Shown: piece by piece, positions 6,966 through 40,330 of the stretch
Numbering within the stretch: the first letter of the stretch is position 1
Layout of the letters: every line of letters starts with the position of its first letter
Assembly: GCA_035485275.1 (NCBI GenBank)
Contig: DATHOE010000034.1
Coordinates: 93,677-157,676 of the forward strand
DNA: 64,000 bases
Source of the DNA: a bacterium
GTDB lineage: Bacteria; Oederibacteriota; JAJYGY01; DAIDJD01
Direction: 5' to 3'
Notes under the pieces: generated by a model
What the model was told of the DNA's origin: nothing
Databases searched by the model: none
The model's input: only the letters and a program-made list of their open reading frames with translations
Position numbers and translations under genes: made by a program

Positions 6966-6976
6966 AGACTCCAACC

Positions 6977-10033: not shown

Positions 10034-10036
10034 GGA

Positions 10037-16872: not shown

Positions 16873-17772
16873 ATGGGATTTTTTGGAAGCCTGAATTTTG
16901 TCGTGAAACATCCGTTCAACCAGGGACATTCCTTTTCTGCGGTCAAAAGATACATAAACTGGCAGATCGCCTGCCGCTTGGCGCCCGGCGCCTTGGTTTG
17001 CCCGTGGGTGAACGGCACCAAACTGGTGGCCGGCCCGGGCGACCATGGCGTCACGGGCAACATCTATTGCGGACTGCATGATTTCGAGGACATGGCCTTC
17101 GTGCTCCACGCGCTGCGTCCCGACGACCTGTTCCTGGACATCGGAGCCAACGCCGGCAGTTACACCGTCCTGGCCTGCGGAGCCGTCGGCGCCAGGGGGA
17201 TCTGCATCGAGCCGGTCCCCGCCACCTTCTCGAAACTGCTCCTGAATATCAGGGTCAACGACCTCGGCGGACGGGTGCGAGCATTGAATGTGGGCGTGTC
17301 CGACAAGGCCGGAGTCCTGCTCTTCAGCACCGCGGAAGACGCGATGAACCATGTGGTCGAGGGGACCAAGGAGGGCACGGTCAGCGTCGAAACTCGGACC
17401 CTGGACGCGATCCTGGGCGAAGAGACTCCGGCCATCATCAAATTGGACATTGAAGGCTTCGAACTTCCGGCCTTGCGCGGAGGGAGCGCACTGTTTTCCC
17501 GTACGGGCCTGCAGGCCGTGATCATGGAGCTGAACGGGAGCGGCGAGCGTTACGGCTTCGACGAGAAGGACATCCTGCGCATGATGTCTGAATTCGGCTT
17601 TGAACCGGGCCTTTATGTCCCTGAAACGCGGCGGATAGCGGCCTTGGCGACGCCGAACAGAAAAGGGAACACGCTCTTCGTCCGCGACCGGGACAGGCTC
17701 GCCGGCCTGTGCCGGCAGGCCCCGGCTGTGGAGATATTCGGCGGGACCTATTTACGCCCGCCCAACGCGTAA
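16873..17772 (+). CDS. FkbM-family methyltransferase
   Basis: LFLDIGANAGSYTVLA ... IIKLDIEGFELPAL motifs typical of FkbM family. Confidence 0.8.
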   Translation: MGFFGSLNFVVKHPFNQGHSFSAVKRYINWQIACRLAPGALVCPWVNGTKLVAGPGDHGVTGNIYCGLHDFEDMAFVLHALRPDDLFLDIGANAGSYTVLACGAVGARGICIEPVPATFSKLLLNIRVNDLGGRVRALNVGVSDKAGVLLFSTAEDAMNHVVEGTKEGTVSVETRTLDAILGEETPAIIKLDIEGFELPALRGGSALFSRTGLQAVIMELNGSGERYGFDEKDILRMMSEFGFEPGLYVPETRRIAALATPNRKGNTLFVRDRDRLAGLCRQAPAVEIFGGTYLRPPNA

Positions 17773-17814
17773 ACGAGTTTTTGGGCGGGCGATTAGCGGA
17801 ACGCCGTGAAAGGG

Positions 17815-17843: not shown

Positions 17844-17900
17844 AAGGCTCCGGGACGCCGGCCGGAGTCCTGACAAAAACGTCGGCAAAGGACTTGGGTT

Positions 17901-18590
17901 GTGCCTGCAGAAGACAAACGCGACATCATCGTGATTCCGGACGTGCATGGCAGGGAGGACGTGCTTGAAGCCATGCTGCGCGCCACCAACTTCGTCGATG
18001 GCGAGGGAAGGCTGACGCCGTCCGACACATGGCTGGTGCAGCTGGGGGACATCCTGGACCGCGGCCCCCGTCCGCGGGCCTGCGTGGAACGGCTGATGTC
18101 CATTCAGCAGCAGGCGCCGTCCCGGGTGACAGTCCTTAAGGGCAACCATGAGGAGATGGCCCTGCACGCCGACGACCCGGCGGTGAAGCGCCTGTGGCTG
18201 CTCAACGGCGGCGGAAGCACCTTGGACGACTATGAGGGCGAGTTCGAACGCTTTCTTTTGCCAGGCGGGAAACATTATCAATGGCTCGACGGCCTGCCAC
18301 TTTTTTTCGAGTTCAAGAACGTCCTGTTTTGCCACGCCGGATTGGGGAAAAAACGGAAGGGGCGCCTGGAGGCCGATGGAGTGCTCTGGGACCGTCCGCC
18401 CCTTGAACGAGGACCTTACCGGGCCGTTGTTTGCGGGCACACGCCCACCGCCAGCGGCCACATTGAGGAGGTCGCGGGGGTCTGGCGCTGCGATCTGGGC
18501 TTGGGTCACGGCACGGAAAAGGCCCTGGAGGTCCTGGTCTTGACCGTGGGCGATTCGACCTTGGCGTCCCGGATAGTGCATTTCACCTAG
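17901..18590 (+). CDS. calcineurin-like metallophosphoesterase (PPP-family Ser/Thr-type phosphatase / ApaH-like)
   Basis: Metal-binding motifs PDVHGRE (GDxHG-like), LGDILDRG (GDxxDRG), LKGNHEE (GNHE), CGHT. Confidence 0.75.
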   Translation: MPAEDKRDIIVIPDVHGREDVLEAMLRATNFVDGEGRLTPSDTWLVQLGDILDRGPRPRACVERLMSIQQQAPSRVTVLKGNHEEMALHADDPAVKRLWLLNGGGSTLDDYEGEFERFLLPGGKHYQWLDGLPLFFEFKNVLFCHAGLGKKRKGRLEADGVLWDRPPLERGPYRAVVCGHTPTASGHIEEVAGVWRCDLGLGHGTEKALEVLVLTVGDSTLASRIVHFT

Positions 18591-18659
18591 TCCTACCGTA
18601 TAATTGCCCCCGATTTTCCTTGGTACCTAAGGTTTTTGAACCGTTCAGGAGATCGAATC

Positions 18660-19847
18660 GTGCCCAATTCCAGGTCCCTTTCTCGGTTCAGCGGCAAAGC
18701 GGGCCAGGACATTTCGGTATTGCATGTGATCGGCAGCCTCTCCGGCGCGGCCGGAGGCCCAAGCCGATGTGTTCCGGATCTATGCCTCGGCAGCTCCGCA
18801 GCCGGCATAAGGGTCGGGATCGCGTTCATGGACGGGGCAGGTGAGCTGTCCATGGAGGCCAAGCGCCTGCCAGGCCACGGCGTCCGGTGCCATCCCCTGC
18901 GTCTTTGGGACGCGCCTTGGGCTCTATGGCGGATTGCGCGGGATTACGACGTCGTGCACGTCAACGGCGTCTGGAGTTTTTTGCCCACCTTGGGCTGCCT
19001 GATCGCCCGGCTGCGGCATAAACCGCTGGTGGTGGCCCCACACGGCATGCTGGAACCCTGGTCCTTGGCCAAAAAAAGGCTGAAAAAAAAGTTGGGACTC
19101 TGGCTTTACCAGGGCAGGGTGCTGCGTATGGCCTCGGTATTGCAGGCCACGGCCGCGAGCGAAGCGACCAATATCCGGGACCTTGGACTCGGGAACCCGG
19201 TGGCGGTCATCGCCAACGGCGTCCAAATTCCGGCCATCAAGGGCAGCCTTGCGCGGCTTAAGGGGAAGGCGCGGCGCCTGCTCTTCCTTTCGCGCATCCA
19301 TCCCAAGAAAGGCGTCTTGGAATTGGTGCGGGCTGTGGCGGCCCTGCGCACGATCATAGGGGACGGGCATTGGATCGTGACCGTCGCCGGGCCCGACGAG
19401 GGTGGCCATCTAGCCGAAGTGCAGGCGGAGGCGCAGAGGCTCGGCGTCCTATCTTTCTTTGAGTTTCCCGGTTCCGTCGAGGACGAGGAAAAATGGTCCC
19501 TTTACCGCTCCGCGGACCTTTTTGTGCTTCCCACTTACAGCGAGAATTTCGGCTTGGTGATCGCCGAAGCCCTGGGCTGCGGCGTGCCGGTGGTGACGAC
19601 GCAGGGGGCTCCGTGGAGCGAATTGGAGAGCCATCACTGCGGCTGGTGGCACCCTATCGGCCAGAAGAACCTGGAAGCGGCGCTCAAAGAGGCGCTGCTT
19701 TGCCCTCCCCGGACCCTGAAGGCGATGGGCGGACGGGGCCGTAAACTGGTCCAAAAACGCTACGGATGGGACCTGGTGGTGGCCCAGCTGGAGCAGCTAT
19801 ACCTGTGGGTATTGGGAAGGCGGGGCAGGCCAGAGGGGCTTCATTAA
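18660..19847 (+). CDS. glycosyltransferase family 4 (GT-B)
   Basis: VLHVIGSLSGAAGG N-terminus, C-terminal VLPTYSENFGLVIAEALGCGVPVV (EX7E-type motif); GTG at 18660 preceded by AGGAGA. Confidence 0.8.
   Translation: MPNSRSLSRFSGKAGQDISVLHVIGSLSGAAGGPSRCVPDLCLGSSAAGIRVGIAFMDGAGELSMEAKRLPGHGVRCHPLRLWDAPWALWRIARDYDVVHVNGVWSFLPTLGCLIARLRHKPLVVAPHGMLEPWSLAKKRLKKKLGLWLYQGRVLRMASVLQATAASEATNIRDLGLGNPVAVIANGVQIPAIKGSLARLKGKARRLLFLSRIHPKKGVLELVRAVAALRTIIGDGHWIVTVAGPDEGGHLAEVQAEAQRLGVLSFFEFPGSVEDEEKWSLYRSADLFVLPTYSENFGLVIAEALGCGVPVVTTQGAPWSELESHHCGWWHPIGQKNLEAALKEALLCPPRTLKAMGGRGRKLVQKRYGWDLVVAQLEQLYLWVLGRRGRPEGLH
19071..19090 (+). repeat. A7 and A8 homopolymeric tracts inside GT4 coding sequence
   Basis: gccAAAAAAAggctgAAAAAAAAgttg read directly; encodes KKRLKKK. 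Confidence 0.85.
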
Positions 19848-19994
19848 AAGAAGGCAAGCTGGGGGGCTAGACTGGGATACCCGCTTAAAGTAAAATTACG
19901 CCCAGCTCGTTTTTGTTTCACAATCCCTGCCTGTTCTTCCGCGGCCTTCTTGTTCCACAAGAACCTGCGTGAAAAGGCTGAAAAGGCGACTACG

Positions 19995-20717
19995 ATGTTT
20001 CTTGGCGGGAGAATAAAGGCCCGGCTCGGATCGCGGGTTTGGTTTTGCATGTGTGCGGCGGCCGTTTTGATCATAAGCACCACGCCTGGCTTCGCCTCCG
20101 GCTTTTCCCAATCATCGAATGACTTTACGCTGTTCAACGGCGCGGATTATCCGCCCTTTCTTATCGGCCCCGGGGACATTTTGACCGTGTCGGTCTATGG
20201 GGAGAAGGATTTTCCAGACAGGTATCTGGTCGAGTCCTCAGGCAAGATCGTTTTGCCGCTTGCAGGCGAGGTCAAGGTGGCGGGCCTCACCCAAGCCCAG
20301 GCCGGCGCCGCCCTTGCGCGCCACCTTTTGCCCTTTGAGAGAAATCCCCAGGTCACGGTCCTGATCGCCGAATCCAACAACTATAACGTGTCGATCCTGG
20401 GGGCTGTGGCCCACCCGGGGAAATACCCCATCCATGGGAAAGCGGATTTACTGGATATTTTGGCTGATTCGGGCGGACCGACGGACCAAGCGGCCCTGAA
20501 CAATGCCGTTTTGATCCGACGTAACAGGCGCATTTCTTTACCCCTCAAGCAGTACCTTTTGGATACGGACTCCACCGTGTCACAGCCCCTGTTGTACCCC
20601 GGAGATGTCATAGTGGTGCCGGAAACCATCTGGCCGAGCCTGGCCGAATGGGGCATCATCGCGAGCATCATCACCAGCGGAGTGCTTGTATACGCCGCCA
20701 TTGAGAATCGCCCGTGA
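19995..20717 (+). CDS. polysaccharide export protein, OPX/Wza-like (short form)
   Basis: Signal peptide, PGDILTVSVYGEKDF (Poly_export motif), SLBB-like segment, C-terminal TM helix; ATG at 19995 (residue 16 of ORF 19950). Confidence 0.75.
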   Translation: MFLGGRIKARLGSRVWFCMCAAAVLIISTTPGFASGFSQSSNDFTLFNGADYPPFLIGPGDILTVSVYGEKDFPDRYLVESSGKIVLPLAGEVKVAGLTQAQAGAALARHLLPFERNPQVTVLIAESNNYNVSILGAVAHPGKYPIHGKADLLDILADSGGPTDQAALNNAVLIRRNRRISLPLKQYLLDTDSTVSQPLLYPGDVIVVPETIWPSLAEWGIIASIITSGVLVYAAIENRP

Positions 20718-22684
20718 ACAATCCCTCCCCCGGATTTACGCCCGCCGATCACAAGGGAATACGTCCCAATACGCGGTCATCCGTTCAGGCCGACGGCGCA
20801 CATCTTGGTTCGGAGTTGGCCGACATCCTTCGCTTGGTCCTCAAACATTGGAAGCTGATGTTGTTGGTCCTGCTGGCGGTGGCCTTGTCGGCGCTGGCCT
20901 ACGTGGAGACCGCGGTCCCCATGTGGCAATCCACGGCGACGGTCAAACTGCCGGTGGCGGACACGACCGGCGACCCGATGGAACAGCTGCTGCAGATGAA
21001 TTCCGCCAACGACCCCGTTGAAACCTATATGGAGGTCGCGAAGAGCCTCAATGTCGCTCTTCGCGTTGCACGGGATCTGGATTTGACGAATACGGCCCAG
21101 TTCGGGGGGGCCAAGGATTTGACCGCGGTCGCCGGGGCCCTTATCAACTCATTCTCGGTCACGACCGTGGAAGGGAGCAACATCCTCTCCTTCCGGGTGC
21201 AGGCCAGCGACCGGAGGTTGGCGGCGAGGCTCGCGAACGCGTGGGCGCAGGCGTTCATAGACGTCAACCTCGATTTCAACCGCACAGGGGCCGACAGCCG
21301 CCGTAATTTCATCGAGTCCCAAATGGCCGCGCTGAAGGTGACCCTAACCAACGGGGAAGAGGCCTTGACGAAGCTCGCCCAGCATCAGGGCGTTCTCCAT
21401 CAGGCGGGCGGCGAAACCCAGGATCAAGGCGAATCCCTGATCGCCGAGCTGCAGATGAAGGCCGAGGATCTGGAGATTGAGCGTAGCACGCTGGCGACCC
21501 GCTATAGTCCGAATAATCCTCGCTACAAGGAAGTGGACGCGGAGTACCGTGAAGCCGAGAGGGAGCTGCAACGACGGATGCTCCAAATGCCGACCCAGGA
21601 GATGGATTATTCCCGCTTGGCCCGGGAAGTCAAAGCGAACGAAGCGATGTACGACCTGCTTCTTGAAAAAGACCAGGAAACCAGGATTTCCGAGAATGTG
21701 GACGACAGCGGGATTGTGGTCGTGGACACGGCCCTCCCGGCCAACACCCCTTTTAGTCCGCAAAAAAAGCGGATCGTTTTGTTGGGCCTGCTGGTCGGGC
21801 TTCTGCTGAGTTTTTCCGCGGCATGGAGCCTGGAGCGCTGGCTCGACCAAGTCGGAGGCGAGGCGGAGCTCTTCCGTTTGAGCGGCCTGCCGGCCCTGGC
21901 CATGATCCCGAATTGGCGTTATGAGCTCAAAAGCACCCAGGCGGCCGGCGCGAAGCAGAAAGCCGGAGGCCCCTCCGAAGAAGGGCTTCCCCAGCAGGAA
22001 ATGGAAGGCTTGATCATCATGCCGTCCCTGAAGAACACCTACTACAGCGAGTCCTTCAAGATGCTGCGGACCAATCTGGCCTTCAGCCAGGTCGACAGGC
22101 CCATCAAGACTTTTTGTGTCCTGTCCGCGAACGCCTCCGAAGGCAAGACGACAATAAACTCCAATCTGGCGCTGACGCTGGCAGCGACCGGCAAAAAGGT
22201 GCTGCTGGTGGACGGCGACCTTCGCAAACCGAGGCTGCACAAGCTTTTCGGTCTGAAGGTCGGTTCGGACGTCGGGCTGCCTTTTTTGCTGAACGGGCAG
22301 GCCACCTTGGAGTCCCAGCTGCGCCAGGGTCCGGTTCCGGAATTGTCGATACTGCCCTGCGGGGTGATCGTCCCGAACCCGTCCGAACTCATGGCGTCCG
22401 CCATCCTTGAGAAGATCCTGCAGACTATGCGTGAGCGCTTCGATTACGTGATATTCGACGCCGCGCCTATTCTGCCCGTGACGGACGGCGTGGTGTTGGC
22501 GACGCGTTTGGACGGCGTCGCCCTCGTCGTGAAGCACGAGGGCACCCGCCGCCTCGAGTTGCGGGTGGCCTTGGAGCACTTGGCTTCGGCCAAGGCCCCG
22601 GTCTTGGGCACGATCTTGAATTCGGTGGATATGAGGAAATATTCCTACACCTACGGATACAAAAGCCAATCTTATGGGGATTAG
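20714..22684 (+). CDS. wzc: polysaccharide co-polymerase / BY-type tyrosine autokinase (Wzc-like)
   Basis: N-terminal TM plus coiled-coil chain-length domain; Walker A SANASEGKTT, A' VLLVDGDLRKP, Walker B DYVIFDAAP; C-terminal tyrosine cluster KYSYTYGYKSQSYGD. Confidence 0.85.
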   Translation: MNNPSPGFTPADHKGIRPNTRSSVQADGAHLGSELADILRLVLKHWKLMLLVLLAVALSALAYVETAVPMWQSTATVKLPVADTTGDPMEQLLQMNSANDPVETYMEVAKSLNVALRVARDLDLTNTAQFGGAKDLTAVAGALINSFSVTTVEGSNILSFRVQASDRRLAARLANAWAQAFIDVNLDFNRTGADSRRNFIESQMAALKVTLTNGEEALTKLAQHQGVLHQAGGETQDQGESLIAELQMKAEDLEIERSTLATRYSPNNPRYKEVDAEYREAERELQRRMLQMPTQEMDYSRLAREVKANEAMYDLLLEKDQETRISENVDDSGIVVVDTALPANTPFSPQKKRIVLLGLLVGLLLSFSAAWSLERWLDQVGGEAELFRLSGLPALAMIPNWRYELKSTQAAGAKQKAGGPSEEGLPQQEMEGLIIMPSLKNTYYSESFKMLRTNLAFSQVDRPIKTFCVLSANASEGKTTINSNLALTLAATGKKVLLVDGDLRKPRLHKLFGLKVGSDVGLPFLLNGQATLESQLRQGPVPELSILPCGVIVPNPSELMASAILEKILQTMRERFDYVIFDAAPILPVTDGVVLATRLDGVALVVKHEGTRRLELRVALEHLASAKAPVLGTILNSVDMRKYSYTYGYKSQSYGD

Positions 22685-22758
22685 CGACAAGTGTCGCGGG
22701 CGCAACCCGGTGGCGCCCGTCGACAAGGAGCATTTACAGTTAAGACGAAGGGGCGGCG

Positions 22759-24069
22759 ATGGGATTGTTGTCAAAAAGTGAGATTGGGCCGGCCGGAGTT
22801 TCCAAAAAAAAGAAAATCAGGCCACCTCACTTGAGTTCGGCGGCGGGCAGCGCGGGGCACGCCAGGGAAAAGGCGCTGGTCGTCACCTACAATCACGGGC
22901 TCAACGACCCGCCCATCAAGCAAGCCGCCGAAAGTCTCGCTGCCGAAGCTTACCAGGTCACGCTTTTGCAATCCCCCGTGCGACGGGCTTTTCCGACCGA
23001 GGCCCCGAAGGGGGTGTCGGTCGTGGAGTACTGGATGCCACGGCGCGGCGGGGGATTGAACAGTCTGGTTCGCTGGCTCAGTTTCTGGCTGTCCGTCAAA
23101 CGGGCCCTAAAGGACCTGAAGCCCGACGTCGTGGTCGCGTTCATGCCCCCGAGTTTGGCGGCGATGCCCGGCTTCCTGAAGCGCGGGAATGTGGTCGCCT
23201 GCATCTACGACGTCCCCGCCCTGAACACAATGGGGAGGCTGGACCGATGGATCTTCACGCGCGGGTTCCGCTTTTTGAAGAACGCCGGCGTTACCTGGTG
23301 CAGCGACTATTTCAGGGCGGTATTGACCAAGGATCTGGCCGACCTGAAAACGCTGCCGCTGGTCTGCCATAATTGCCCCCCGAAGGACTACTTCCACGCC
23401 CTACCGGCGGCCAGGGATCCCTGGCTCAGGAGGGAGCTCATCAAACTGGGGGCCCCCCTGAATCCCAAAGGCGGCGGCTGCATCCTGTTGAGGGCTGGCG
23501 CCATCGGCGAGTCCTGCGGGCTGGATGAGACGCTGGAGGCCATGTCCGGACTTCCCAAGGATTACGTTTTTCTCATGATGGGACGCCCGGATCCCGGCTT
23601 TTTGGAAGCGCTCAAAGCCAGGATCAAGGGGATGGGACTGCAGAACCGCGCCTTCGTCTGGAACCTGCCTTCGGATGAAGTGTGGAAGAAAGCCCTGATA
23701 GGGGCCGACATCGGGCATGTGATCCACGGCCCCTTCCAGTCGGCGGCCCTTCAGGAACAGTTTAAGTTGAATTCCAGCCTCTCCAATAACCGGATCTTCC
23801 AGTACATGGCCGCCGGGCTTCCTGTTCTCGCCTATGACGACCCCAGAATGTCGGGCCTGTACAAGGAAGTGGGCTGCTTTCGTTCGGCCCGGATCCTGAA
23901 TCTGCGCGAGGACCTGGAGGCCCATTGGAGGGAACTCGGCGCCTCGGCGGCCCTGCGCCGCCGGCTTGGACTCCGGGCGAGGCGCGCCCACCTGAAAAAG
24001 TATTGCTGGGAATATCAGTTCGCGCCGGTGCTGCAGGCCGTCCACGGACGCGCCGTGGAGCCCGCGTGA
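22759..24069 (+). CDS. glycosyltransferase (GT-B fold, family 1/4-like)
   Basis: C-terminal NRIFQYMAAGLPVLAYDDP-type motif and GT-B organisation; weaker N-terminal similarity. Confidence 0.6.
   Translation: MGLLSKSEIGPAGVSKKKKIRPPHLSSAAGSAGHAREKALVVTYNHGLNDPPIKQAAESLAAEAYQVTLLQSPVRRAFPTEAPKGVSVVEYWMPRRGGGLNSLVRWLSFWLSVKRALKDLKPDVVVAFMPPSLAAMPGFLKRGNVVACIYDVPALNTMGRLDRWIFTRGFRFLKNAGVTWCSDYFRAVLTKDLADLKTLPLVCHNCPPKDYFHALPAARDPWLRRELIKLGAPLNPKGGGCILLRAGAIGESCGLDETLEAMSGLPKDYVFLMMGRPDPGFLEALKARIKGMGLQNRAFVWNLPSDEVWKKALIGADIGHVIHGPFQSAALQEQFKLNSSLSNNRIFQYMAAGLPVLAYDDPRMSGLYKEVGCFRSARILNLREDLEAHWRELGASAALRRRLGLRARRAHLKKYCWEYQFAPVLQAVHGRAVEPA
22804..22811 (+). repeat. A8 homopolymeric tract near the 5' end of the glycosyltransferase gene
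   Basis: tccAAAAAAAAgaaaatc read directly, codons 15-18 (KKKK) of ORF 22759. Confidence 0.85.
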
Positions 24070-24097
24070 CGGCCAGCCGTTCGCTCCCCAGGGGCGC

Positions 24098-25603
24098 ATG
24101 AGAAGCCGCCGCATCTTGTCGGCCTATGGCAGCAGTTTGCTGGGGCTATTCTCCGGCATCCTGACCAATTTTTGGTTCCTCAAGGTCCTGACATCCCAAC
24201 TGTCGAAAAACGAATTCGGCCTTTACGCCTATGTACTGCAAATCACCGCCTATTTCGGTTTTTTGCTGCTCGGCATCGATTTCGCCGCCTCTCGCGACAT
24301 AGCCAAGAATCTGGCGCTGGGGCGCCAGGATGAGGCCTTCAGCGCCTACCAGGTGCTGGGACGTTTCAACAGGATCGCCGGGGCCGTATGCGCCGCCGGA
24401 ACCGTCATCCTGGCCCTGGTGATCCCCCGCCTGGGCTTGCGCGGCTGGGACCAGCCTTCGGTGCTTGTCGGTTTGACCCTGTTGGTGGGGTTCTCCCAGG
24501 TCCTCGGTTTTTTCCAGGTCACGCCCTCCGCGGCGCTCATCGGATCGCAACAGCAATGGATCGTCAACCTCCTGACCACGCTCAGGAGCGTCGCAACCAC
24601 ACTGCTGGCCTACGCGCTGCTTGAGGGCGGGGCCGGGATCTACTGCATCGCGATCGCGGGCGTGGTGACCGCGGCCCTGCACCTTTTGTGTTCCGACATT
24701 CTTTGCCGCAAATATTGCCCGTGGACCGTGGACCCGTCCCGGAAGACGCTGTCGCGCGAGAAGTTCAAGGAGCTGTTCCAGTTCGGGGGCCTGAACCATC
24801 TCGGCTATATGGCCTGGACCGTGGAGTCCACCAGCGACGTCTTCCTGCTGGGCGCCTACGGCGGGCCCGAGGCCGTAGCGATATACGTGCTTTGGTGGCG
24901 CTTTCCGTCCATGCTCATCAGCTTTTGCACCAGGCTGAGCGACGCTGCCTTTCCGACCTGGGTCGAAAGCAGCACCGATCCCGGAAACTCCTCCGCCCGT
25001 CTTTTGGAAAAGGTGGGTATGCTCAGCCTCGGGCTCGGCACCTTGGCCCTTCTCGGGACCGGCCTGTGGCTTCCGAATTTCGTGCGCCTGTGGCTCGGGC
25101 ACGACTATCTGGCCCTGCATCCGCGCTTTTTGGCCCTGGAGATGGGGGCCCTTGTGCTGGTGCGGGTGTTTGGGAACCTGTTCAGCATGTTCTGGCTCTC
25201 CCAGGGCAAGGTGCGCCTCACCACCGGTTTGAGCATCGTGCTCATGGTGACCAAACTGGGGCTGGGCATCGTCTTGACCCGCCTTTATGGCGTGGACGGC
25301 CTCCTGGGTGCCTCGATCATCAACGGCGTCGCCCAGTGCGCCGGCTTGGGCATACCCTTGTACCTGAAAAAGCACTTCAACGTTAAGACGCTGATTTCGG
25401 GCCTGGCGCTCACCGCAGGCGCGCTCCTGCTGGCGATTTGGATCGGCGGGGCCTTCATCCACGACGTTGGACCCTTTGGATTCGGGCTCGGCGTGGCCGC
25501 GACGGCCCTCTTTTGGGGTCTGGTGTGGACCGGGGCCGCCTGGAAGAGCGCGCTCAACAGCAATTTGCGGCAACTTAAGGTGTTCCGGTCCTGGCCCGCC
25601 TAA
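24098..25603 (+). CDS. wzx: Wzx-like oligosaccharide flippase (MOP/polysaccharide biosynthesis protein family)
   Basis: About 500 aa, 12+ TM helices, organisation typical of Wzx/PST family. Confidence 0.7.
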   Translation: MRSRRILSAYGSSLLGLFSGILTNFWFLKVLTSQLSKNEFGLYAYVLQITAYFGFLLLGIDFAASRDIAKNLALGRQDEAFSAYQVLGRFNRIAGAVCAAGTVILALVIPRLGLRGWDQPSVLVGLTLLVGFSQVLGFFQVTPSAALIGSQQQWIVNLLTTLRSVATTLLAYALLEGGAGIYCIAIAGVVTAALHLLCSDILCRKYCPWTVDPSRKTLSREKFKELFQFGGLNHLGYMAWTVESTSDVFLLGAYGGPEAVAIYVLWWRFPSMLISFCTRLSDAAFPTWVESSTDPGNSSARLLEKVGMLSLGLGTLALLGTGLWLPNFVRLWLGHDYLALHPRFLALEMGALVLVRVFGNLFSMFWLSQGKVRLTTGLSIVLMVTKLGLGIVLTRLYGVDGLLGASIINGVAQCAGLGIPLYLKKHFNVKTLISGLALTAGALLLAIWIGGAFIHDVGPFGFGLGVAATALFWGLVWTGAAWKSALNSNLRQLKVFRSWPA

Positions 25604-25775
25604 GGGCCGGCCGGTCCCATAGGTACCCGCGGTTCCCGCGCCCCCCTGAGGCCCCTGGCGACCCGTTTGACCCTATGCTATCGTGTGTGGGTTGCGGTTC
25701 CCGGCGGTGTTTTGTCCGGCCCGCGCGGGGACGGCGGACCGACAGTCCGCATATTTTGGACAGATATGGGAGCAG

Positions 25776-26918
25776 ATGGTGAGAATCGCAATCGCGAGTC
25801 CGGGGCGTTTTCATGTCCTGGATTTAGCGCGGGAATTGCATTCGCTGGGCCACGAGGTGCGTTTCTATTCCTATGTCCCGGGATTTCGTTCAAAACGTTT
25901 TGGACTGCCGGAGGCCTGCGGCCGGTCGATATTCTGGTGGGGCGCTCCCTTGCTCGCGCTGAACAGGGTTCTGGGTTTCCTGGGACTGGGGGCCCCCTTG
26001 AACTCGGTGCAGCGGGCCTGGTGCGACTGGGTCACCTCAACGCGTCTTGAGCCCTGCGACGTGATGATCGCCATGTCCGGTTGTTTCAGCCTGAGCATTG
26101 CCAAAGCGAAAAAACGTTGGAACGCGGTCATTTTGGTCGAGCGCGCCAGCCGCCACATCAACTCCCAGAAGGAGATCCTGGACGAGGTCCACGCCCTCCA
26201 TCCGGGCGCCGCGACCGTGCCCGACGTCGACGTGCACAGGGAACTGAGGGACTACGCCTTGGCGGACCGAATCGTGGTGCCCTCCAGGCACGTGGTGGAG
26301 AGCTTCGTCGAAAATGGGGTTCCGCGGGAACGTCTGTTCCGAAATCCGTTCGGGGTGGACCTTTCGATGTTCTCCCCCACGCCCGTTCCCGCAGGGCCGC
26401 CCACGGTATTGATGGTCGGGACTTGGTGCTACCGCAAAGGCTGCGACCTGCTGGTGGAGGCCTTGCGGGGCCTCGATTTCAGGCTTTTGCACGCCGGCCC
26501 GCTCGGCGACTGCCCTTTCCCCAGCGGGGCAGGCTTTGAGACATTGGGGATTTTGGACCAGACGAAGCTGAAAGAGGTCTATGCCCGGGGCCATATCATG
26601 GCCCTTCCGTCCAGGGAGGAGGGCTTGGCCTTTGTGCAGGCCCAGGCTCTGGCCTGCGGACTGGGCTTGGTCTGCTCCGACCGAACGGGCGGGGACGATC
26701 TAAGGGAGATACTGGAAGATCCCGGCCTGGTGACCGTGGTCAAGACCGGCGACGTCGGGGGACTGAGAGAGGGCCTTCGGCAGGCGATGCGCCTGGCGCA
26801 GTCGAAGAAGGGCCTACGGGACAGCTCCGGGGCTTCCTTGGAAAAGTTGTCGTGGAAGGCCTACGGGCTGCGCTATGACGCTTTTTTGCGGGGCCTGGTT
26901 CCTGCAAAGGCCTTATGA
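25776..26918 (+). CDS. glycosyltransferase family 4 (GT-B)
   Basis: MVRIAIASPGRFHVLDLARELHSLGHEV N-terminus; C-terminal IMALPSREEGLAFVQAQALACGLGLV motif; ATG at 25776. Confidence 0.8.
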   Translation: MVRIAIASPGRFHVLDLARELHSLGHEVRFYSYVPGFRSKRFGLPEACGRSIFWWGAPLLALNRVLGFLGLGAPLNSVQRAWCDWVTSTRLEPCDVMIAMSGCFSLSIAKAKKRWNAVILVERASRHINSQKEILDEVHALHPGAATVPDVDVHRELRDYALADRIVVPSRHVVESFVENGVPRERLFRNPFGVDLSMFSPTPVPAGPPTVLMVGTWCYRKGCDLLVEALRGLDFRLLHAGPLGDCPFPSGAGFETLGILDQTKLKEVYARGHIMALPSREEGLAFVQAQALACGLGLVCSDRTGGDDLREILEDPGLVTVVKTGDVGGLREGLRQAMRLAQSKKGLRDSSGASLEKLSWKAYGLRYDAFLRGLVPAKAL

Positions 26919-27982
26919 AGAAGGGTCCGCTGAATATCCTTTATCTGGGGGATTCCGCGCAGGGCACCACGTCCCTGCAACGGTGCATGGCGCTGCGCTC
27001 GCTCGGGCACCGGGTGACCATGGCGGACAGCGCTCCGCGGAGCATTGGGCTCCTCCATCGCGTCGATGACTGGCTGTACCGAAAGGGTTTTTCGGGGATG
27101 GGCCATCGCAGCCCGGCCACCAACCGGCAAATCCGACAGGAACTAGGGCGTAGGGTTTTCGACCTGCTTTGGATCGATAAGGGAATCTACATCACCCCCG
27201 AGACCATCGCCGCAGCCAAGGCCGCCAATCCCGGTCTGCTGGTTTTGGGCTATTCGCCGGACTACATGGCCGCGCGGCACAACAACAGCCGCTGGTTCAT
27301 CGCCCATTCCGCTTCGTACGACCTCTTCGTGACCACCAAATCTTATGCGGTGGAGTGGCACAAGGCGATCGGGACAAAAGACGTACTTTTTGTCGGCAAC
27401 GCCTACGACCCCGCGACGCACAGGCCGATGCGGATCGCCGCGGCGACGCGAAAGGCGCTGGGCGGGCCGGTTGGTTTCATCGGCTTTTATGAGGCGCCCC
27501 GCGCGGAGGCGGTCGCGTATCTGGGGGCGCACGGTGTTCCGACGAAGGTGTATTCCCCGGGATGGGACACCAGTTCGCCGGCCCCGGGGGTGACCGTCGT
27601 GGCGCGTCCCCTGTTCGGCGACGACTACGCGAAAGCAATCAACGCCTTCGACATCAACCTTTGCTTCCTTCGCGCCATGAACTTGGACGTGCAGACCCAG
27701 CGCAGCGTCGAAATTCCGGCTTGCGGGGCCTTCATGCTGGCCGAGCGGACGGCCGAGCACCAGGGACTTTTTAAAGAGGGTATCGAGGCGGATTTTTTCA
27801 GCAGCAAGGAAGAACTTCTGTCGAAATGCCGTTTCTATCTCGCGAATCCGGCAGTGAGGAAAAGGGTCGCCCTGGCCGGGTACCGGCGTTGCCTCCGTTC
27901 GGGTTACAGCAACCAGGCCAGGATGGAAAAGATGATTGAACACCTTTTGGGGTCCGTGCGGGGACGCGGGAAGGGAAGATGA
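26915..27982 (+). CDS. CgeB-like glycosyltransferase family protein
   Basis: C-terminal RSVEIPACGAFMLAERTAEHQGLFKEG...FFSSKEELLSKCRFYLANPAVRKRVALAGY resembles CgeB/GT1-like domain. Confidence 0.6.
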   Translation: MKKGPLNILYLGDSAQGTTSLQRCMALRSLGHRVTMADSAPRSIGLLHRVDDWLYRKGFSGMGHRSPATNRQIRQELGRRVFDLLWIDKGIYITPETIAAAKAANPGLLVLGYSPDYMAARHNNSRWFIAHSASYDLFVTTKSYAVEWHKAIGTKDVLFVGNAYDPATHRPMRIAAATRKALGGPVGFIGFYEAPRAEAVAYLGAHGVPTKVYSPGWDTSSPAPGVTVVARPLFGDDYAKAINAFDINLCFLRAMNLDVQTQRSVEIPACGAFMLAERTAEHQGLFKEGIEADFFSSKEELLSKCRFYLANPAVRKRVALAGYRRCLRSGYSNQARMEKMIEHLLGSVRGRGKGR

Positions 27983-29415
27983 GCTCGGCCACTTTGATGG
28001 GGGACACGCCCTTATTGCAGGTTCCCGCCGATACCCGGTATTTTAGGCGGATAGGATTCGGCCTCATCGCGGCCTGGGTCCTGGTTCTTTTGGCCGTCCT
28101 ATTCGTGAGCAATTGGTGCACGGAGAAAAACCTCCTGGCCGCGTTGGTTCTGAGTCTCGGTTTGAGCCCTATGGCGGCGTGGTTTTTGGAGGGCCAGGGC
28201 GGCGATTTCCCGATTTTCCAGTTGCATACACTATACTACGGCATGAATTACGGGCTTGCGTCGCTGTACGCCAATCCTCAATTGACCGCGGTGTCGGAAT
28301 CGGACCGCGTTGTCGCGCTGCAGGCGACCGCCATGGGCTTGGGGGTGATGCTGTGGGCGTATTACTTCATCGGGGTACGGTTGTTCCGGCGGATACGGCC
28401 GCTGAAGGTGACAACTCCCGTGCCCTATGAAAATTTTCTCAGATGGGCCTGGGTCATAGCCTTCATCAGCGCCATAAAAAAAATCACCGGAGTGGATTTT
28501 GGGCCCCTGGAGATGCTGGTTTACCAGCCTCTCCTGTACCTGGGGTGGATGGCCAACACTTTTATCCTTGTCGACTTGCTTGTCTACAAAAGGGGGAAGA
28601 AACTGCGGTCGATGTTTTTTTTCGGTTTGTTGATGTTCTTTCAGTTTTTTTCCGCCATCGGATCCGGCCTATTCTCCAACATCCTGATCCTCGTTTTTTT
28701 CATGATCTTCGTTTATTTGAACGTGAAAAAGCGGGTACTCATGAAGGTCATCGTCTTGAGCGTGGTGTTTTTCGTCATTTTGGAGCCGCTGAAAAACGAA
28801 TTTCGCCTGCTGACTTGGGGGCCCAAGAATACGTCCGTCAGCGCGGTTCAAAGGGCGTCGATTTTCGCGGAATTGCTCGTGTCGAAGTACAGCGCCTATT
28901 CTTCCGTCGCATCCACCTCCGTGAACCAGGTCGTCAGCAGGATAGACGACGCCTATACGTTGGCGCGAGTGATGCAGCAGACACCCGACTATGTCCCTTA
29001 TTCGAACGGCAGCACTTACTTATCCTTGCTCACCATTTGGATTCCACGCGCTATTTGGCCCGATAAACCACAAGGGAACATTGGAAATACGTGGGCCCAC
29101 TGGTACGGCCTATTGGACCAGGACGATTTCACGACCTCCTACAACCTGCCTTGGATCGTGGAGTTTTATATCAACTTCGGCTGGGCGGGGATCATCGTCG
29201 GCATGTTTTTGTCCGGAATCCTGTTTGCCTGGCTTGCCGCATTTTTTTGTTTCCCCGGGGCGAGCGCGTTGGAGTATTCGGCGGCGGTTCCCCTGCTTCT
29301 TAACCTTTGGTACGCCGAATCGAATTTCGCCCTGGTTGCCGGCGGGCTCATCATAGGGCTGGTCGTGCTCCGGGTGTACATGAAAGCCATGCCCTACCTC
29401 GCTTTCAAGTTTTGA
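27979..29415 (+). CDS. polytopic membrane protein, putative Wzy-type polymerase / O-antigen ligase-like
   Basis: 478 aa, about 10-12 TM helices with large loop; lower GC than neighbours; position between GT genes. Confidence 0.55.
   Translation: MSSATLMGDTPLLQVPADTRYFRRIGFGLIAAWVLVLLAVLFVSNWCTEKNLLAALVLSLGLSPMAAWFLEGQGGDFPIFQLHTLYYGMNYGLASLYANPQLTAVSESDRVVALQATAMGLGVMLWAYYFIGVRLFRRIRPLKVTTPVPYENFLRWAWVIAFISAIKKITGVDFGPLEMLVYQPLLYLGWMANTFILVDLLVYKRGKKLRSMFFFGLLMFFQFFSAIGSGLFSNILILVFFMIFVYLNVKKRVLMKVIVLSVVFFVILEPLKNEFRLLTWGPKNTSVSAVQRASIFAELLVSKYSAYSSVASTSVNQVVSRIDDAYTLARVMQQTPDYVPYSNGSTYLSLLTIWIPRAIWPDKPQGNIGNTWAHWYGLLDQDDFTTSYNLPWIVEFYINFGWAGIIVGMFLSGILFAWLAAFFCFPGASALEYSAAVPLLLNLWYAESNFALVAGGLIIGLVVLRVYMKAMPYLAFKF
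28476..28483 (+). repeat. A8 homopolymeric tract inside Wzy-like gene
   Basis: gccatAAAAAAAAtcacc read directly (encodes AIKKIT). Confidence 0.85.
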
Positions 29416-29416
29416 C

Positions 29417-30511
29417 ATGAAGATACTCGTCTTCCGGATTGGCCAATTGGGGGACGCCTTGGTGTCGGTGCCCGTCGTCCGGGCGGTCAGGGCCCTGTAC
29501 CCGCAAGCCCGGATGGACCTTTTGACCGACATGAAACGCGATCCCAACAGCGTCTCCGTGGACAAGGTTTTCGACGGATGCGGAATCTTCGAAAACGTTT
29601 TTTTCTACGGGTCGAAGGAGCGTTTCTTGAGGAATCCCCTTGCGCTGGCGGGGACCTGGCTGTCATTGCGGAAAAACGGCTATGACGGCCTGGTATACCT
29701 GGCGCCGAACCAGCGCTCGGGTTTCCAGATGCGCCGGGACGCCCTTGTCTTCCGATCCCTGGGGATCAAACGCATCTGGGGGCTGTCGTCCTCGGGCCGT
29801 ATTCTGCCCTCCTCCAGGCCCTTGCCGCGCCTGCCGGCCGAGGGCCGGACCCTTGCGGACAGGCTCATTCACGACGGATTGCCGATCAGCGTCGATGATT
29901 TCCGCTTCGATTTGGGGATCAGCGACGGCGAATATGGGGCCCTGCGCGGGAAGTTGGGGCAGGCCTGGCCCGGGGAGGGGGTCCGCGTCTACGCGGCCTG
30001 TCCCTTCACGGCCATGCCGGCGAAAAAATGGCCCTTGGGCCGTTACATCGAGGTATTCCGCCGCCTCCACAAGGAACAGGGCTTGAGCCCGATATTTTTG
30101 GGGTCGAAGGCGGATGGCGCGGAGGCTGAGGAATTGCGTCGCGCCATCGGAATCGGTTACAATTTCACTGGAATGAGCATCCGGGAGTCGGCGGCGATCA
30201 TGCGCCGCTGCGATTTTTACCTCGGCAACGACACGGGCACCATGCACTTGGCCGCCGCCGAGGGGCTCCGGTGCGTGGCGGTCTTCTCCGCGCGCACATA
30301 CCCCGGGATCTGGGAGCCACCGGGATCCGGTCACCGGATTCTCCGCACGGCGGTTCCGTGCGAAGGCTGCGAGCTTACCCACTGCGTCGAGCACAAGATG
30401 CAGTGCCTCGACCTCATCGGCGCCGACGCCGTCTATGAGGCCTGTGAGAGCCTTCTTGGAACGGCGGGTTACCCCCCGGGGGCTCAGGGACCTATAGCGG
30501 CAGGCAATTAG
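29417..30511 (+). CDS. glycosyltransferase family 9 (heptosyltransferase-like)
   Basis: MKILVFRIGQLGDAL N-terminus and YLGNDTGTMHLAAA motif typical of GT9. Confidence 0.8.
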   Translation: MKILVFRIGQLGDALVSVPVVRAVRALYPQARMDLLTDMKRDPNSVSVDKVFDGCGIFENVFFYGSKERFLRNPLALAGTWLSLRKNGYDGLVYLAPNQRSGFQMRRDALVFRSLGIKRIWGLSSSGRILPSSRPLPRLPAEGRTLADRLIHDGLPISVDDFRFDLGISDGEYGALRGKLGQAWPGEGVRVYAACPFTAMPAKKWPLGRYIEVFRRLHKEQGLSPIFLGSKADGAEAEELRRAIGIGYNFTGMSIRESAAIMRRCDFYLGNDTGTMHLAAAEGLRCVAVFSARTYPGIWEPPGSGHRILRTAVPCEGCELTHCVEHKMQCLDLIGADAVYEACESLLGTAGYPPGAQGPIAAGN

Positions 30512-30567
30512 CGTTTCATCGCCCCTTCCGCGGATGGATGGGGCGAGCTCCGTTTTTAAGGCGTCCG

Positions 30568-31428
30568 ATGACCAAGCTTCCGATCACCGTTCTCTTGGCC
30601 GTCAAGAACGAGGCGCTGAACCTGCCGAAATGCCTGGATTCCCTCGGGCCGGCCGTGAAGGTCTATGTCCTGGATTCGCAGAGCACCGACGATTCGGCCA
30701 AGATCTGCCGCCGCCGGGGAGCCGAGGTCGTACAGTTCCGCTACAAGAACAGCTATCCGAAAAAAAGGCAGTGGGCCCTGGAGCACTTGAGGATCACCAC
30801 GCCGTGGGTTTTTCTCCTGGACGCGGACGAGATCATAACCGAGGCCCTGTGGTCGGAAATCCGAGAGGTCATCTCGTCGCCGTCGAAGGTCAACGCCTTC
30901 CTCATCAAAAAACAGTTCCATTTTCTGGGGCGGCGCTTCACCCACGGCGGTTTTTCCCACGCAGCCATCCTTCTTTTCAGGAACGGGACGGCCCGTTTTG
31001 AAAGGCTCTTCGACGACGATTCGTCGGATCTGGACATGGAGGTCCATGAGCGTCTGATCGTGGATGGCGCCATCCGCCCCTTAAAAAACCCCGTCAGGCA
31101 CGAGGATTTCAAGAATTTGTCGGCCTATCTCGAGCGGCACAACAAGTATTCCTCCTGGGAAAGCGCGCTGCGCCTTCAATTCATGAAGACGGGGAAATAC
31201 GGGAACGACAGCATCCGAGCGAAGTTCTTCGGCAACGCCCAGGAACGCCGGCGTTTCCTGAAGAAACTCGTCATCCGGGCCCCTTTTGAGCCGTGGATTT
31301 GGTTCATCTACCATTACCTGATCAGGCTCGGTTTTCTTGAGGGAAGGCCCGGGTTTATCGCCTGCGTCATTCGGTCGAATTATATTTCGGACACCAGGGC
31401 CAAAATGTACGAGATGGCGAACAAATGA
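30568..31428 (+). CDS. glycosyltransferase family 2
   Basis: ITVLLAVKNEALNLPKCLDS ... VFLLDADEI (DxD) GT-A motifs; ATG at 30568. Confidence 0.8.
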   Translation: MTKLPITVLLAVKNEALNLPKCLDSLGPAVKVYVLDSQSTDDSAKICRRRGAEVVQFRYKNSYPKKRQWALEHLRITTPWVFLLDADEIITEALWSEIREVISSPSKVNAFLIKKQFHFLGRRFTHGGFSHAAILLFRNGTARFERLFDDDSSDLDMEVHERLIVDGAIRPLKNPVRHEDFKNLSAYLERHNKYSSWESALRLQFMKTGKYGNDSIRAKFFGNAQERRRFLKKLVIRAPFEPWIWFIYHYLIRLGFLEGRPGFIACVIRSNYISDTRAKMYEMANK

Positions 31429-38740: not shown

Positions 38741-40330
38741 ATGCTGTTCTTGGACAAGCAAATGAACTTTGGTTGCGGAAAAATCGCCTTTGTGATGGCT
38801 GCCATCCTGGCCCTGGGTTTCGGCTGGGTATGCATGGTTTTGGCCAAGCGTTTACGTTGGGTTGACCGTCCCGGACACAGGAAGAGTCAGAAGCGGTCGG
38901 TGCCCTATCTGGGGGGGCTGGCTCTTTTTCTCGCCCTTGGCACGACCCTGTTTGTCCTTTATCAGGTGGGTTATTTTGTTGCGGAGCCGGGTTTCAGCAT
39001 TCCCTCTCTCCTAGCGTGTTTATCCCCGGCTTTGGCCGCCTGCGGATTGGGGCTCTGGGACGATATTTATGAAATGCCGGCCAGATACAAATTCGCCTTC
39101 CAAGGCCTCATCGCGCTCGGGTTCAGCCAGTTCGCGTACCGATTTTCCGTTTTCCACATTCCCGGTTTTTCGCCCCTAATTTTGGACCCTGAAGTAGCCG
39201 TCCTGGTCACCACGTTTTTCATGGTCGCGGTTGTAAACGGATTCAACATGATCGACGGCTCGGACGCCCTCTGCCTCGGTTCAAGCACGGTGACCTTGGC
39301 GCTTGTGTCCGCCGTGGCTGAGCTTGACGGACAGCCCCAATTCGCGATATTGGGCCTGGCGACCTGCGGCGCCTGCCTGGGTTTGCTGTACTGGAATCGG
39401 CCCCCCGCACGCATTTATATCGGGGACGCCGGCAGCCTGGGCTTGGGCTTCCTTGTGGCGGGTCTTGTGGTCGCACTGGGAGCGGGCGCCCCCGGACATT
39501 TCCTGCTGGGGCCGAAGGGTCTTCCGCGGGAGGCTTTCGCCTATCAGATCGTGGTGGCGTCACTATTGGTCGGCATTCCGGCCCTGGAGGTGCTGTTGAC
39601 GGTGGCGCGGCGGGGCCTGCAGGGAAGGAGCTTGGGCCGCGGCGACCAGGGACACCTGCACCATCGATTGGCCCAGCGCGGATGGCGGCCGGCCTCGATC
39701 GCCGGCGGAGCCATGGGGGTGAATCTCCTGTGTGGAAGCATAGCGTTGGCTTTTTTGTCCGGTGAAAAAGGCATGGCCGTGATGTGCGCGTTCATGCTGG
39801 CGATACTGTTGGGGTTGGGGCTGCAGTATTTGGACTATTTCCGGATGCTTCGATCGGATTGGCTGGACAAACGGCGCCCCCATTATGCGGTGGCGACCCA
39901 CTTTGCCGCCATGCAGGCCTCAAAACTGAAGTTGGCCAGCCATCGTGAGGAGGTTTTGGCCCTGGTGAAGCAGGCGTGCCACGAATTTGGGGCCCATGAA
40001 TGTCGCGTCAGCGTGCGGGACTCGTCGGACAGGCGATGGATTTGGAAATGGTCCGAACCGGCACCCGCGCAGGCGGGCCCCCGGGTGAAGGACAGGGTGC
40101 GCATCGCGGACACGCGCAACCATGCGTCCTGGACGATGGAAAACGACGACAGAGAACCGGACTTGAACATGAATCTTCGCGTGATCATGACCGAATTCAT
40201 GCGCGACGCGCTTGAACGTTTGGTTGAACTCATGGCGGGCCAGGAGAACGTCGTTCCAGAACGGGATGCCGGAAAGACGGACACACTGGACCTGGTTCTG
40301 AGTATCAAGGGTTTCAAAAACAGGCTCTGA
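38741..40330 (+). CDS. undecaprenyl-phosphate sugar-1-phosphate transferase, MraY/WecA (GT4-PNPT) family, with about 190-aa C-terminal extension
   Basis: LGLWDDIYE (DD motif), VNGFNMIDGSDAL, IYIGDAGSLGLGF; typical family length about 340-370 aa, this is 529 aa. Confidence 0.8.
   Translation: MLFLDKQMNFGCGKIAFVMAAILALGFGWVCMVLAKRLRWVDRPGHRKSQKRSVPYLGGLALFLALGTTLFVLYQVGYFVAEPGFSIPSLLACLSPALAACGLGLWDDIYEMPARYKFAFQGLIALGFSQFAYRFSVFHIPGFSPLILDPEVAVLVTTFFMVAVVNGFNMIDGSDALCLGSSTVTLALVSAVAELDGQPQFAILGLATCGACLGLLYWNRPPARIYIGDAGSLGLGFLVAGLVVALGAGAPGHFLLGPKGLPREAFAYQIVVASLLVGIPALEVLLTVARRGLQGRSLGRGDQGHLHHRLAQRGWRPASIAGGAMGVNLLCGSIALAFLSGEKGMAVMCAFMLAILLGLGLQYLDYFRMLRSDWLDKRRPHYAVATHFAAMQASKLKLASHREEVLALVKQACHEFGAHECRVSVRDSSDRRWIWKWSEPAPAQAGPRVKDRVRIADTRNHASWTMENDDREPDLNMNLRVIMTEFMRDALERLVELMAGQENVVPERDAGKTDTLDLVLSIKGFKNRL

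Follow-up and report, generated by a model that had tools for sequence, protein, structure and literature searches.

A lambda-phosphatase-like PPP enzyme encoded beside a Wzc-type tyrosine kinase as a candidate phosphotyrosine phosphatase of polysaccharide assembly

Wzc-type bacterial tyrosine kinases (BY-kinases) belong to systems that assemble and export polysaccharides, and their cycling is thought to require a counteracting phosphatase. A 64-kb stretch of a genome of the Oederibacteriota (assembly GCA_035485275.1, contig DATHOE010000034.1, positions 93,677 to 157,676; 64,000 nucleotides, hereafter the window) encodes, at 17901..18590 on the forward strand and shortly upstream of such a kinase, a cytoplasmic lambda-phosphatase-like metallophosphoesterase of the PPP family with 229 residues, assigned from Pfam and NCBIfam models, a family alignment, an AlphaFold2 (AF2) model and Foldseek. 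This enzyme probably has a function in the system that assembles and exports the polysaccharide. There is also a good possibility, if one short of probable, that it is a Wzb-analogous phosphotyrosine phosphatase of the adjacent Wzc, a role in which both the phosphotyrosine specificity and the Wzc substrate are drawn by analogy. In the proposed mechanism the phosphatase would strip phosphate from the C-terminal tyrosine cluster of Wzc, as Wzb and CpsB do elsewhere, and Wzc would cycle between phosphorylated monomers and dephosphorylated oligomers, allowing polymerisation and export to proceed; the initiating sugar-phosphate transferase, a UDP-sugar dehydrogenase or other substrates of the kinase might be dephosphorylated as well.

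The 229-residue product matches Pfam Metallophos (PF00149; E 2.5e-11, score 44.8 bits, cutoff 21.5) and carries a complete PPP signature. Motif 1 reads PDVHG (residues 13-17, 17937-17951), with the first glycine replaced by proline and the aspartate and histidine kept, and is followed by GDILDRG (residues 49-55, 18045-18065), GNHE (residues 81-84, 18141-18152), the segment WLLNGG (18195-18212), CHAG with the ligand H145 (18330-18341), WDRPP with the second phosphate-binding arginine R165 (18387-18401), CGHT with the ligand H180 (18432-18443) and a C-terminal motif of bacterial type, CDLGLG (18489-18506). Throughout a family alignment of 31 sequences (A1) the metal and phosphate ligands are invariant and the motif-1 proline is nearly so. 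The AF2 model reaches a predicted local distance difference test score (pLDDT) of 96.6 and a predicted template-modelling score (pTM) of 0.93, and from the intact active site and the fold the protein is predicted to be a soluble, catalytically competent two-metal phosphoprotein phosphatase. Since neither a signal peptide nor a transmembrane segment is predicted and the catalytic motifs begin at residue 13, it should reside in the cytoplasm, in the same compartment as the Wzc kinase domain. An earlier, sequence-only reading of this DNA had placed a PPP-type phosphoesterase close to the BY-kinase, which the Metallophos match and the intact catalytic residues bear out; among the motifs it quoted, GDxxDRG and GNHE are present as described, whereas its GDxHG has to be corrected to PDVHG.

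Several comparisons agree in placing the enzyme in the bacterial branch of the PPP family that holds lambda phosphatase, PrpA and the Shewanella-type (Shelph) phosphatases. A Foldseek search with the AF2 model returned lambda phosphatase (1g5b, TM-score ~0.7) first, followed by the Shewanella structures 1v73/2z72 and PP1, each with a probability of 1.00. When the A1 profile was compared with solved structures, the Shewanella cold-active protein-tyrosine phosphatase (2z72/1v73) scored best (E 2e-16) and lambda phosphatase (1g5b) second (E 2.5e-14), ahead of plant BSU1, Arabidopsis RLPH2 (5vjv, E 1.8e-9) and an ApaH-like protein, and then of PP2A, calcineurin and PP1. The best NCBIfam matches were PrpA and PrpB, with weaker ones to Pnkp, ApaH and PrpE, and all of them lie far under their equivalog cutoffs: the PrpA/PrpB models (NF008516, NF007425) give 49.9 bits against 326 and 34 against 332, over the N-terminal 100 residues only, and the ApaH model (NF001204) gives 25.9 bits against 176. 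The sequence-only reading had named clustering with ApaH as the outcome that would undo its proposal; on E. coli and lambda references the A1 profile instead gives lambda phosphatase 56 bits, PrpA 47 and ApaH 23, and the GNHE and GDxxDRG motifs differ from the GNHD and GDLVARG of E. coli ApaH. An ApaH-like identity was rejected on these profile scores and motifs.

These scores also bear on the possibility that the enzyme acts on a small molecule, be it a nucleotide, an Ap4A-like dinucleotide, a by-product of nucleotide-sugar metabolism, a sugar phosphate or a polyprenyl diphosphate at the cytoplasmic face. The PPP family does include the dinucleotide hydrolases ApaH and PrpE (PMC535813), the ApaH, PrpE and Pnkp models do match weakly, a homologue in Rahnella adjoins a nucleotide pyrophosphatase, and the linkage of the gene is often to the initiating sugar-phosphate transferase. 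Such a role nevertheless appears improbable in view of the scores and motifs just given; moreover, the protein has no membrane-binding segment, and a BacA/UppP undecaprenyl-diphosphate phosphatase is encoded separately at 5267-6202 on the reverse strand, 12 kb upstream of the polysaccharide locus.

Within the PPP family, bacterial members have been described as broad in specificity or even specific for phosphotyrosine (PMC535813), and Arabidopsis RLPH2, which belongs to the Rhizobiales-like or 'bacterial-like' group, is a bona fide tyrosine phosphatase (PMC12817480). Given these precedents, phosphotyrosine activity of the window enzyme is plausible, though not predictable from sequence. The Shewanella enzyme (Shelph) and RLPH2 (Rhilph) resemble it as PPP-family members that are themselves tyrosine-specific; they differ in being longer (~310-340 residues) and in bearing extra elements, the Shewanella match covers profile positions 4-149 only, and no determinant of tyrosine specificity can be transferred from them. 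Lambda phosphatase, PrpA and PrpB are closer in architecture, being single domains of ~220 residues with the same catalytic residues and a WLxNGG segment after GNHE, and 1g5b is the closest solved fold. They share only ~23% identity with the window enzyme, however, which has CD[LIV]GLG where they have IDTG and which is found in a different genomic context.

The presumed partner is a complete kinase. The gene at 20714..22684 (+) encodes a 656-residue kinase of the PCP-2a/BY-kinase (Wzc) type with two transmembrane segments and the domains Wzz, GNVR and AAA_31, and it scores 170.5 bits against TIGR01007 (cutoff 108). It combines the Wzz/GNVR periplasmic domain with Walker A (22127-22153), Walker A' (22202-22225) and Walker B (22445-22468) motifs and a C-terminal cluster of five tyrosines (YSYTYGYKSQSYGD, 22640-22681); topology prediction puts the kinase domain past the second transmembrane segment, in the cytoplasm, and the orthologues all retain the Walker motifs (A, A') and 5-7 C-terminal tyrosines. 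Its start overlaps by 4 bases the stop of the preceding gene, which encodes a Wza-like outer-membrane polysaccharide export protein (OPX; 19950..20717, +; Poly_export and SLBB domains, alternative called starts at 19995 and 20049). Between the phosphatase and OPX lies a glycosyltransferase of family 4 (GT4; 18636..19847, +; Pfam Glycos_transf_1 and Glyco_transf_4), for which public gene callers start at 18660.

No canonical partner phosphatase was found with this kinase in the window. The sequence-only reading had remarked that a Wzb- or CpsB-type phosphatase is missing from the locus, and this was found to hold for the entire 64-kb window, as distinct from the whole genome: Pfam LMWPc and PHP/CpsB domains were not found in the ~55 open reading frames (ORFs) of the window; a phmmer search with E. 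coli Wzb against all six-frame ORFs of at least 50 residues gave a best E of 2.4; and B. subtilis YwqE, searched by phmmer together with a regular-expression scan, gave no match (E ~2 or worse), the YwqE probe being the weaker check of the two. All regular-expression matches for canonical phosphatases fell in shadow frames of the GC-rich DNA. As a positive control, the Wzb probe recovered a 26%-identical protein-tyrosine phosphatase of low molecular weight (LMW-PTP) in another locus (L122; E 3e-13), so that the negative result for the window is meaningful for the LMW-PTP class. Nor was any LMW-PTP or PHP enzyme found in 20 related loci, and a hidden Wzb or PHP phosphatase in the window or in the related loci was rejected on the basis of Pfam scans of sizeable ORFs, six-frame phmmer and regular expressions. 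The control locus is curious in its own right, as on this metagenome contig the LMW-PTP-like gene lies directly upstream of a distant PPP homologue (L122:2236-3324), so that two phosphatase classes adjoin.

The phosphatase belongs to a small family. A word-indexed search found 34 close relatives at 45-100% identity, all of them metagenomic, followed by a gap down to 36%, and the sole close relative in a set of species-representative genomes is from a metagenome-assembled genome (MAG) of 'candidate division FCPU426' (64% identity). A profile search of 1.84 billion cluster representatives yielded ~5 clusters above 150 bits, 16 at E <=1e-30 and 27,433 at E <=1e-3; hence the close family forms a minute branch within a very large group. 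The window sequence is also contained in a 268.5-kb ENA metagenome contig (ERZ27253678, k141_388256).

Within this branch the link to polysaccharide export recurs. The order phosphatase-OPX-Wzc is found in L082 (phosphatase 70% identical) and in L162 (57%), there preceded by an ABC transporter and a 169-residue protein, while L166 (56%) reads 794-residue protein, phosphatase, outer-membrane beta-barrel protein, OPX, Wzc and Glycos_transf_4. In L178, where Wzc is 60% identical, a 66.5%-identical phosphatase lies on the same strand 4 kb upstream of Wzc, with a toxin-antitoxin pair, an outer-membrane protein and the initiating transferase in between. Altogether, the phosphatase is upstream of OPX-Wzc and on the same strand in five of the six loci whose Wzc is at least 55% identical (the window, L082, L162, L166 and L178). 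The other members show TatC, Glycos_transf_4, phosphatase and contig end (L163/L164, 55%); phosphatase, outer-membrane protein and Glycos_transf_4 (L083, 70%); Glycos_transf_4, Wzx, Wzy, glycosyltransferases and a phosphatase with overlapping start (L167/L168, 46%); a phosphatase adjoining a GT4 gene (L084); and a phosphatase flanked by an OprB porin and a DUF218 protein (L003). Upstream of the phosphatase the neighbours vary (FkbM, ABC transporter, 794-residue protein, outer-membrane or LysM protein), as do the genes intervening before OPX-Wzc (GT4; none; outer-membrane protein; toxin-antitoxin, outer-membrane protein and initiating transferase). Linkage that persists while flanking and intervening genes differ fits selection for linkage, narrow as the lineage is. 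The enzyme therefore shares both locus and compartment with the BY-kinase, and the shared locus is kept in relatives.

Two further features of these loci may be mentioned. Small predicted outer-membrane beta-barrel proteins (weak OMP_b-brl matches, some with LysM) recur in L083, L165, L166, L176, L178 and L179, directly adjoining the phosphatase, the initiating transferase and OPX-Wzc; the window has a GT4 gene in this place instead. In the sub-clade at 46-48% identity (L168:2959-7418, L089:3407-7461) the phosphatase is the last gene of a glycosyltransferase operon and is followed by an ORF of 130 (L168) or 180 (L089) residues with no Pfam match and then by an RHS-repeat, toxin-like DUF6531 protein of more than 1100 residues.

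The association is a property of the clade rather than of the superfamily, since polysaccharide genes lie near only ~6 of ~140 loci of distant homologues from genomes and metagenomes, compared with ~10 of 14 distinct close-family loci, as counted over all retrieved loci with custom hidden Markov models for the initiating transferase, GT4, Wzc, OPX, Wzx and Wzy_C. Among the distant loci a BY-kinase occurs within 10 kb in L037 and L078 only, roughly the chance level, and a superfamily-wide linkage to BY-kinases was consequently rejected. The same contrast argues against coincidence, that is, against a housekeeping or stress phosphatase which merely happens to be encoded where, in this lineage, the Tat/alternative complex III genes give way to the polysaccharide locus. 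This explanation draws on the presence of TatC just upstream of the phosphatase in L086 and L163 and 2.4 kb away in the window, on a sub-clade in unrelated contexts and on a possible terminator after the gene. It is very unlikely, considering that the OPX-Wzc linkage is kept in loci that lack TatC (L162, L166, L178) and that an independent association, including domain fusions, is found in Alphaproteobacteria.

To this second lineage belongs one of the few distant loci with such genes, L037:8254-12883 on a contig of an uncultured alphaproteobacterial MAG (CAVONR010000004.1), where Wzy_C and a lambda-like Metallophos domain are encoded in one frame with no stop between them and a Wzz/BY-kinase gene follows immediately. 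The GC content at third codon positions signals a frameshift in the Wzy part near 9050-9150 of this locus, and the BY-kinase is split into two overlapping ORFs, both possibly assembly errors. A homology search with the L037 protein found the fusion of Wzy_C and Metallophos in at least seven protein clusters, including C0081_16650 of Cohaesibacter celericrescens, and one fusion of GT4 and Metallophos; the fusion-related proteins are P0099, P0101-P0103, P0108, P0145, P0151 and P0201. The long proteins returned by the search of cluster representatives showed Metallophos only and no domain fusion. By a crude analysis of hydropathy and of the positive-inside rule, the phosphatase domain of the fusions faces the cytoplasm.

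Unfused counterparts are known from cultured bacteria. An O-antigen-ligase-family protein, a metallophosphoesterase and a tyrosine autokinase are encoded as an adjacent, co-directional triad in Agrobacterium sp. MA01, Gemmobacter aquarius, Pontibrevibacter nitratireducens and Roseinatronobacter sp. S2, on plasmids (L181, L182, L183, L188). A UDP-glucose/GDP-mannose dehydrogenase gene of the Ugd type is located within a few kb of the triad in L181 and L183; Ugd-type dehydrogenases belong among the substrate classes of BY-kinases. Furthermore, the phosphatase gene is located between OPX and the BY-kinase in Pseudosulfitobacter, adjoins a BY-kinase operon in Allorhizobium and is oriented divergently to OPX-YjbF-YjbH in Phaeobacter and Sulfitobacter. 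In Salipiger, R. phaseoli, S. meliloti pSymB, R. tumorigenes and Bradyrhizobium it has sugar transferases, glycosyltransferases or O-antigen ligases nearby, and in R. etli 8C-3 a distance of 8 kb separates it from Wzc. The context is weak in Sphingobium, where glmS and the gene of a sugar epimerase are a few kb off, and the Rahnella homologue is the only one with no polysaccharide neighbour. No LMW-PTP or PHP phosphatase was found in the 12 of these loci that were searched (L181-L192), L193-L196 being covered by their annotation only.

On the profile of the window family the alphaproteobacterial enzymes score 85-100 bits, above lambda phosphatase. Many proteins from other or unknown contexts outscore them, so common descent of the two associations is not established, and the two lineages may represent convergent recruitments, in which case the functional argument would, if anything, be stronger. 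A Wzb-like role of the window enzyme is plausible, and the alphaproteobacterial recurrence lends it independent comparative support.

The nearest characterised relative is PssZ of Rhizobium leguminosarum bv. trifolii, a 263-residue PPP with the motifs SDVHG, GDYVDRG and GNHE, encoded in the Pss-I exopolysaccharide (EPS) cluster next to exo5, the gene for UDP-glucose dehydrogenase (PMC6071215). A pssZ Tn5 mutant has a pleiotropic phenotype and no longer produces EPS (PMC6071215, PMC7020829), a loss that would be expected also from the loss of a BY-kinase phosphatase. Both enzymes are PPPs of ~230-260 residues with a non-canonical motif 1 (SDVHG and PDVHG, respectively), and both are encoded inside a Wzx/Wzy-dependent EPS locus with a PCP/BY-kinase, the window having Wzx, Wzy, OPX, Wzc, an initiating transferase and many glycosyltransferases. 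They differ in phylum and in that pssZ adjoins exo5 rather than the kinase, and the likeness was drawn from the published description rather than from sequence; for one comparable locus, L037, the alphaproteobacterial homologue is ~29% identical to the window phosphatase.

The authors of the PssZ studies regard it as a serine/threonine phosphatase and suggest serine/threonine (Hanks-type) kinases as partners (PMC6071215, PMC7020829). Transferred to the window, this would mean that the enzyme is a serine/threonine or broad phosphoprotein phosphatase acting indirectly: it would remove phosphate that Hanks-type or other kinases had placed on regulators or on enzymes of biosynthesis, and would not act on the Wzc tyrosine cluster. 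The pleiotropy of the mutant fits such a role, as does the label 'serine/threonine protein phosphatase 1' that database sources give to members of the close family, the PrpA/PrpB serine/threonine phosphatases as best NCBIfam matches, and the many alphaproteobacterial homologues that adjoin glycosyltransferases or OPX/YjbFH instead of a kinase. Against it, Pfam detected no Hanks-type or other serine/threonine kinase domain in the 64-kb window, the BY-kinase adjacency and the Wzy-like fusions point to a substrate within the assembly complex, and bacterial PPPs are not restricted to phosphoserine and phosphothreonine (PMC535813), so that an indirect role of this kind, while the most serious of the alternatives, is on balance unlikely.

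The assignment of the window enzyme to the phosphotyrosines of Wzc must likewise be taken with caution, as several observations besides the view of the PssZ authors weigh against it. A weak terminator-like hairpin at 18618-18632, 3' of the phosphatase gene, renders co-transcription with OPX-Wzc uncertain. As the close family is confined to a single narrow lineage, its synteny may be partly inherited rather than selected, and a sub-clade at 45-47% identity (P0032/P0033) occurs in non-polysaccharide contexts, near genes for PIN/Fic proteins and for a sigma-54 regulator. About half of the alphaproteobacterial contexts show OPX/YjbFH or glycosyltransferase genes next to the phosphatase, not a kinase. 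Activity on phosphotyrosine and on Wzc is plausible by precedent only, from tyrosine-active PPPs elsewhere (PMC535813, PMC12817480). In two related kinase loci, L176 (Wzc 58% identical) and L179/L180 (44%), the 10 kb around the kinase contain no phosphatase of whatever class, which implies that a missing adjacent Wzb is not unusual per se. Finally, a canonical LMW-PTP may be encoded elsewhere in the genome; in S. meliloti, an unlinked LMW-PTP reportedly serves ExoP. The suggestion of the sequence-only reading that this phosphoesterase is the cognate phosphatase of Wzc is accordingly upheld in part, namely in that the enzyme is a cytoplasmic PPP unlike ApaH with a persistent OPX-Wzc linkage and a recurrence in Alphaproteobacteria, and is qualified by the related Wzc loci L176 and L179, where the phosphatase is missing.

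If the window enzyme does serve as phosphatase of Wzc, it would resemble Wzb/Etp and CpsB/CapC/YwqE in being a small cytoplasmic phosphatase encoded in an OPX-Wzc polysaccharide locus, with the same proposed role, and CpsB also in its metal dependence; it would differ from Wzb and CpsB in fold, as a PPP two-metal beta-sandwich with neither the C-X5-R P-loop nor the PHP barrel. A review of BY-kinases names LMW-PTP and PHP partners only (PMC9800525), and a full-text literature search found no paper that pairs a BY-kinase or Wzc with a metallophosphoesterase or calcineurin-like enzyme. It can be proposed, tentatively, that lambda/Rhilph-like PPPs constitute a third widespread class of BY-kinase phosphotyrosine phosphatases beside LMW-PTP and PHP enzymes, recruited in at least two distant lineages (FCPU426-like bacteria and Alphaproteobacteria, including PssZ) and in some cases tethered by fusion to Wzy-like proteins or glycosyltransferases. 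In many BY-kinase loci, chiefly those of bacteria other than enterobacteria and Firmicutes, neither Wzb nor CpsB can be recognised, a gap that a PPP partner would, if true, fill in part. Such a partner would also account for the lack of exopolysaccharide in the Rhizobium pssZ mutant, a link not previously drawn, and would offer a handle on the control of capsule, EPS and biofilm formation in Alphaproteobacteria (rhizobia and roseobacters) and in uncultured lineages of soil and peat. The cultured species that carry the triad of Wzy-like protein, phosphatase and kinase make the idea directly testable.

The phosphatase gene is part of a co-directional run at 16873-31428. The run opens with an FkbM-family methyltransferase (16873..17772, +; Pfam/NCBIfam), the first gene of the same orientation upstream of the phosphatase, ahead of which lies a sigma-70-like site (16789-16817), and continues beyond Wzc at 22759..31428 (+) with GT4, Wzx, GT4, glycosyltransferase, Wzy-like, GT9 and GT2 genes, the Wzx flippase being encoded at 24098-25603 (+) and the Wzy-like polymerase at 27979-29415 (+). 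The likely initiating enzyme is a polyprenyl-phosphate sugar-phosphate transferase of the WecA/MraY family (Pfam Glycos_transf_4; 38741..40330, +), whose orthologues directly adjoin the phosphatase in related loci. According to Pfam scans of the ~55 window ORFs, the polysaccharide region spans ~15.5-59.6 kb and holds many GT4, GT2, GT9 and GT87 transferases, two Wzx flippases and the Wzy-like polymerase, together with a carbamoyltransferase, a DegT aminotransferase, a GDP-mannose dehydratase, a polysaccharide deacetylase, methyltransferases and four Acyl_transf_3 proteins. Neither an Rfam scan nor a tRNA scan gave a match in the window.

Ahead of the polysaccharide region, beyond BacA, are an alternative complex III-like operon at 6297-14482 (multihaem cytochrome c, molybdopterin/FeS subunit, NrfD, ActD, cytochrome c and a protein with nine transmembrane segments) and, directly after it, TatA/TatC (to 15456); the same alternative complex III-Tat block precedes the phosphatase in L163/L164. 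Two islands of low GC content inside the polysaccharide region, at 34700-37200 and 46000-48500 (GC 0.50-0.57, with 0.60-0.70 in the surrounding sequence), have the look of cassettes gained by lateral transfer. Encoded in them are GT87-family membrane glycosyltransferases (34740-35894 and 47109-48491), an Acyl_transf_3 protein (36094-37170) and a 334-residue ORF with no Pfam match (46041-47045). An 848-residue right-handed beta-helix protein, possibly a polysaccharide lyase or epimerase, is encoded within the locus at 53371-55917 (+). Lastly, the 434-residue ORF at 61990-63294 (+) matches aspartate decarboxylase (PanD) in its C-terminal 115 residues only, and its true start is therefore probably far downstream.

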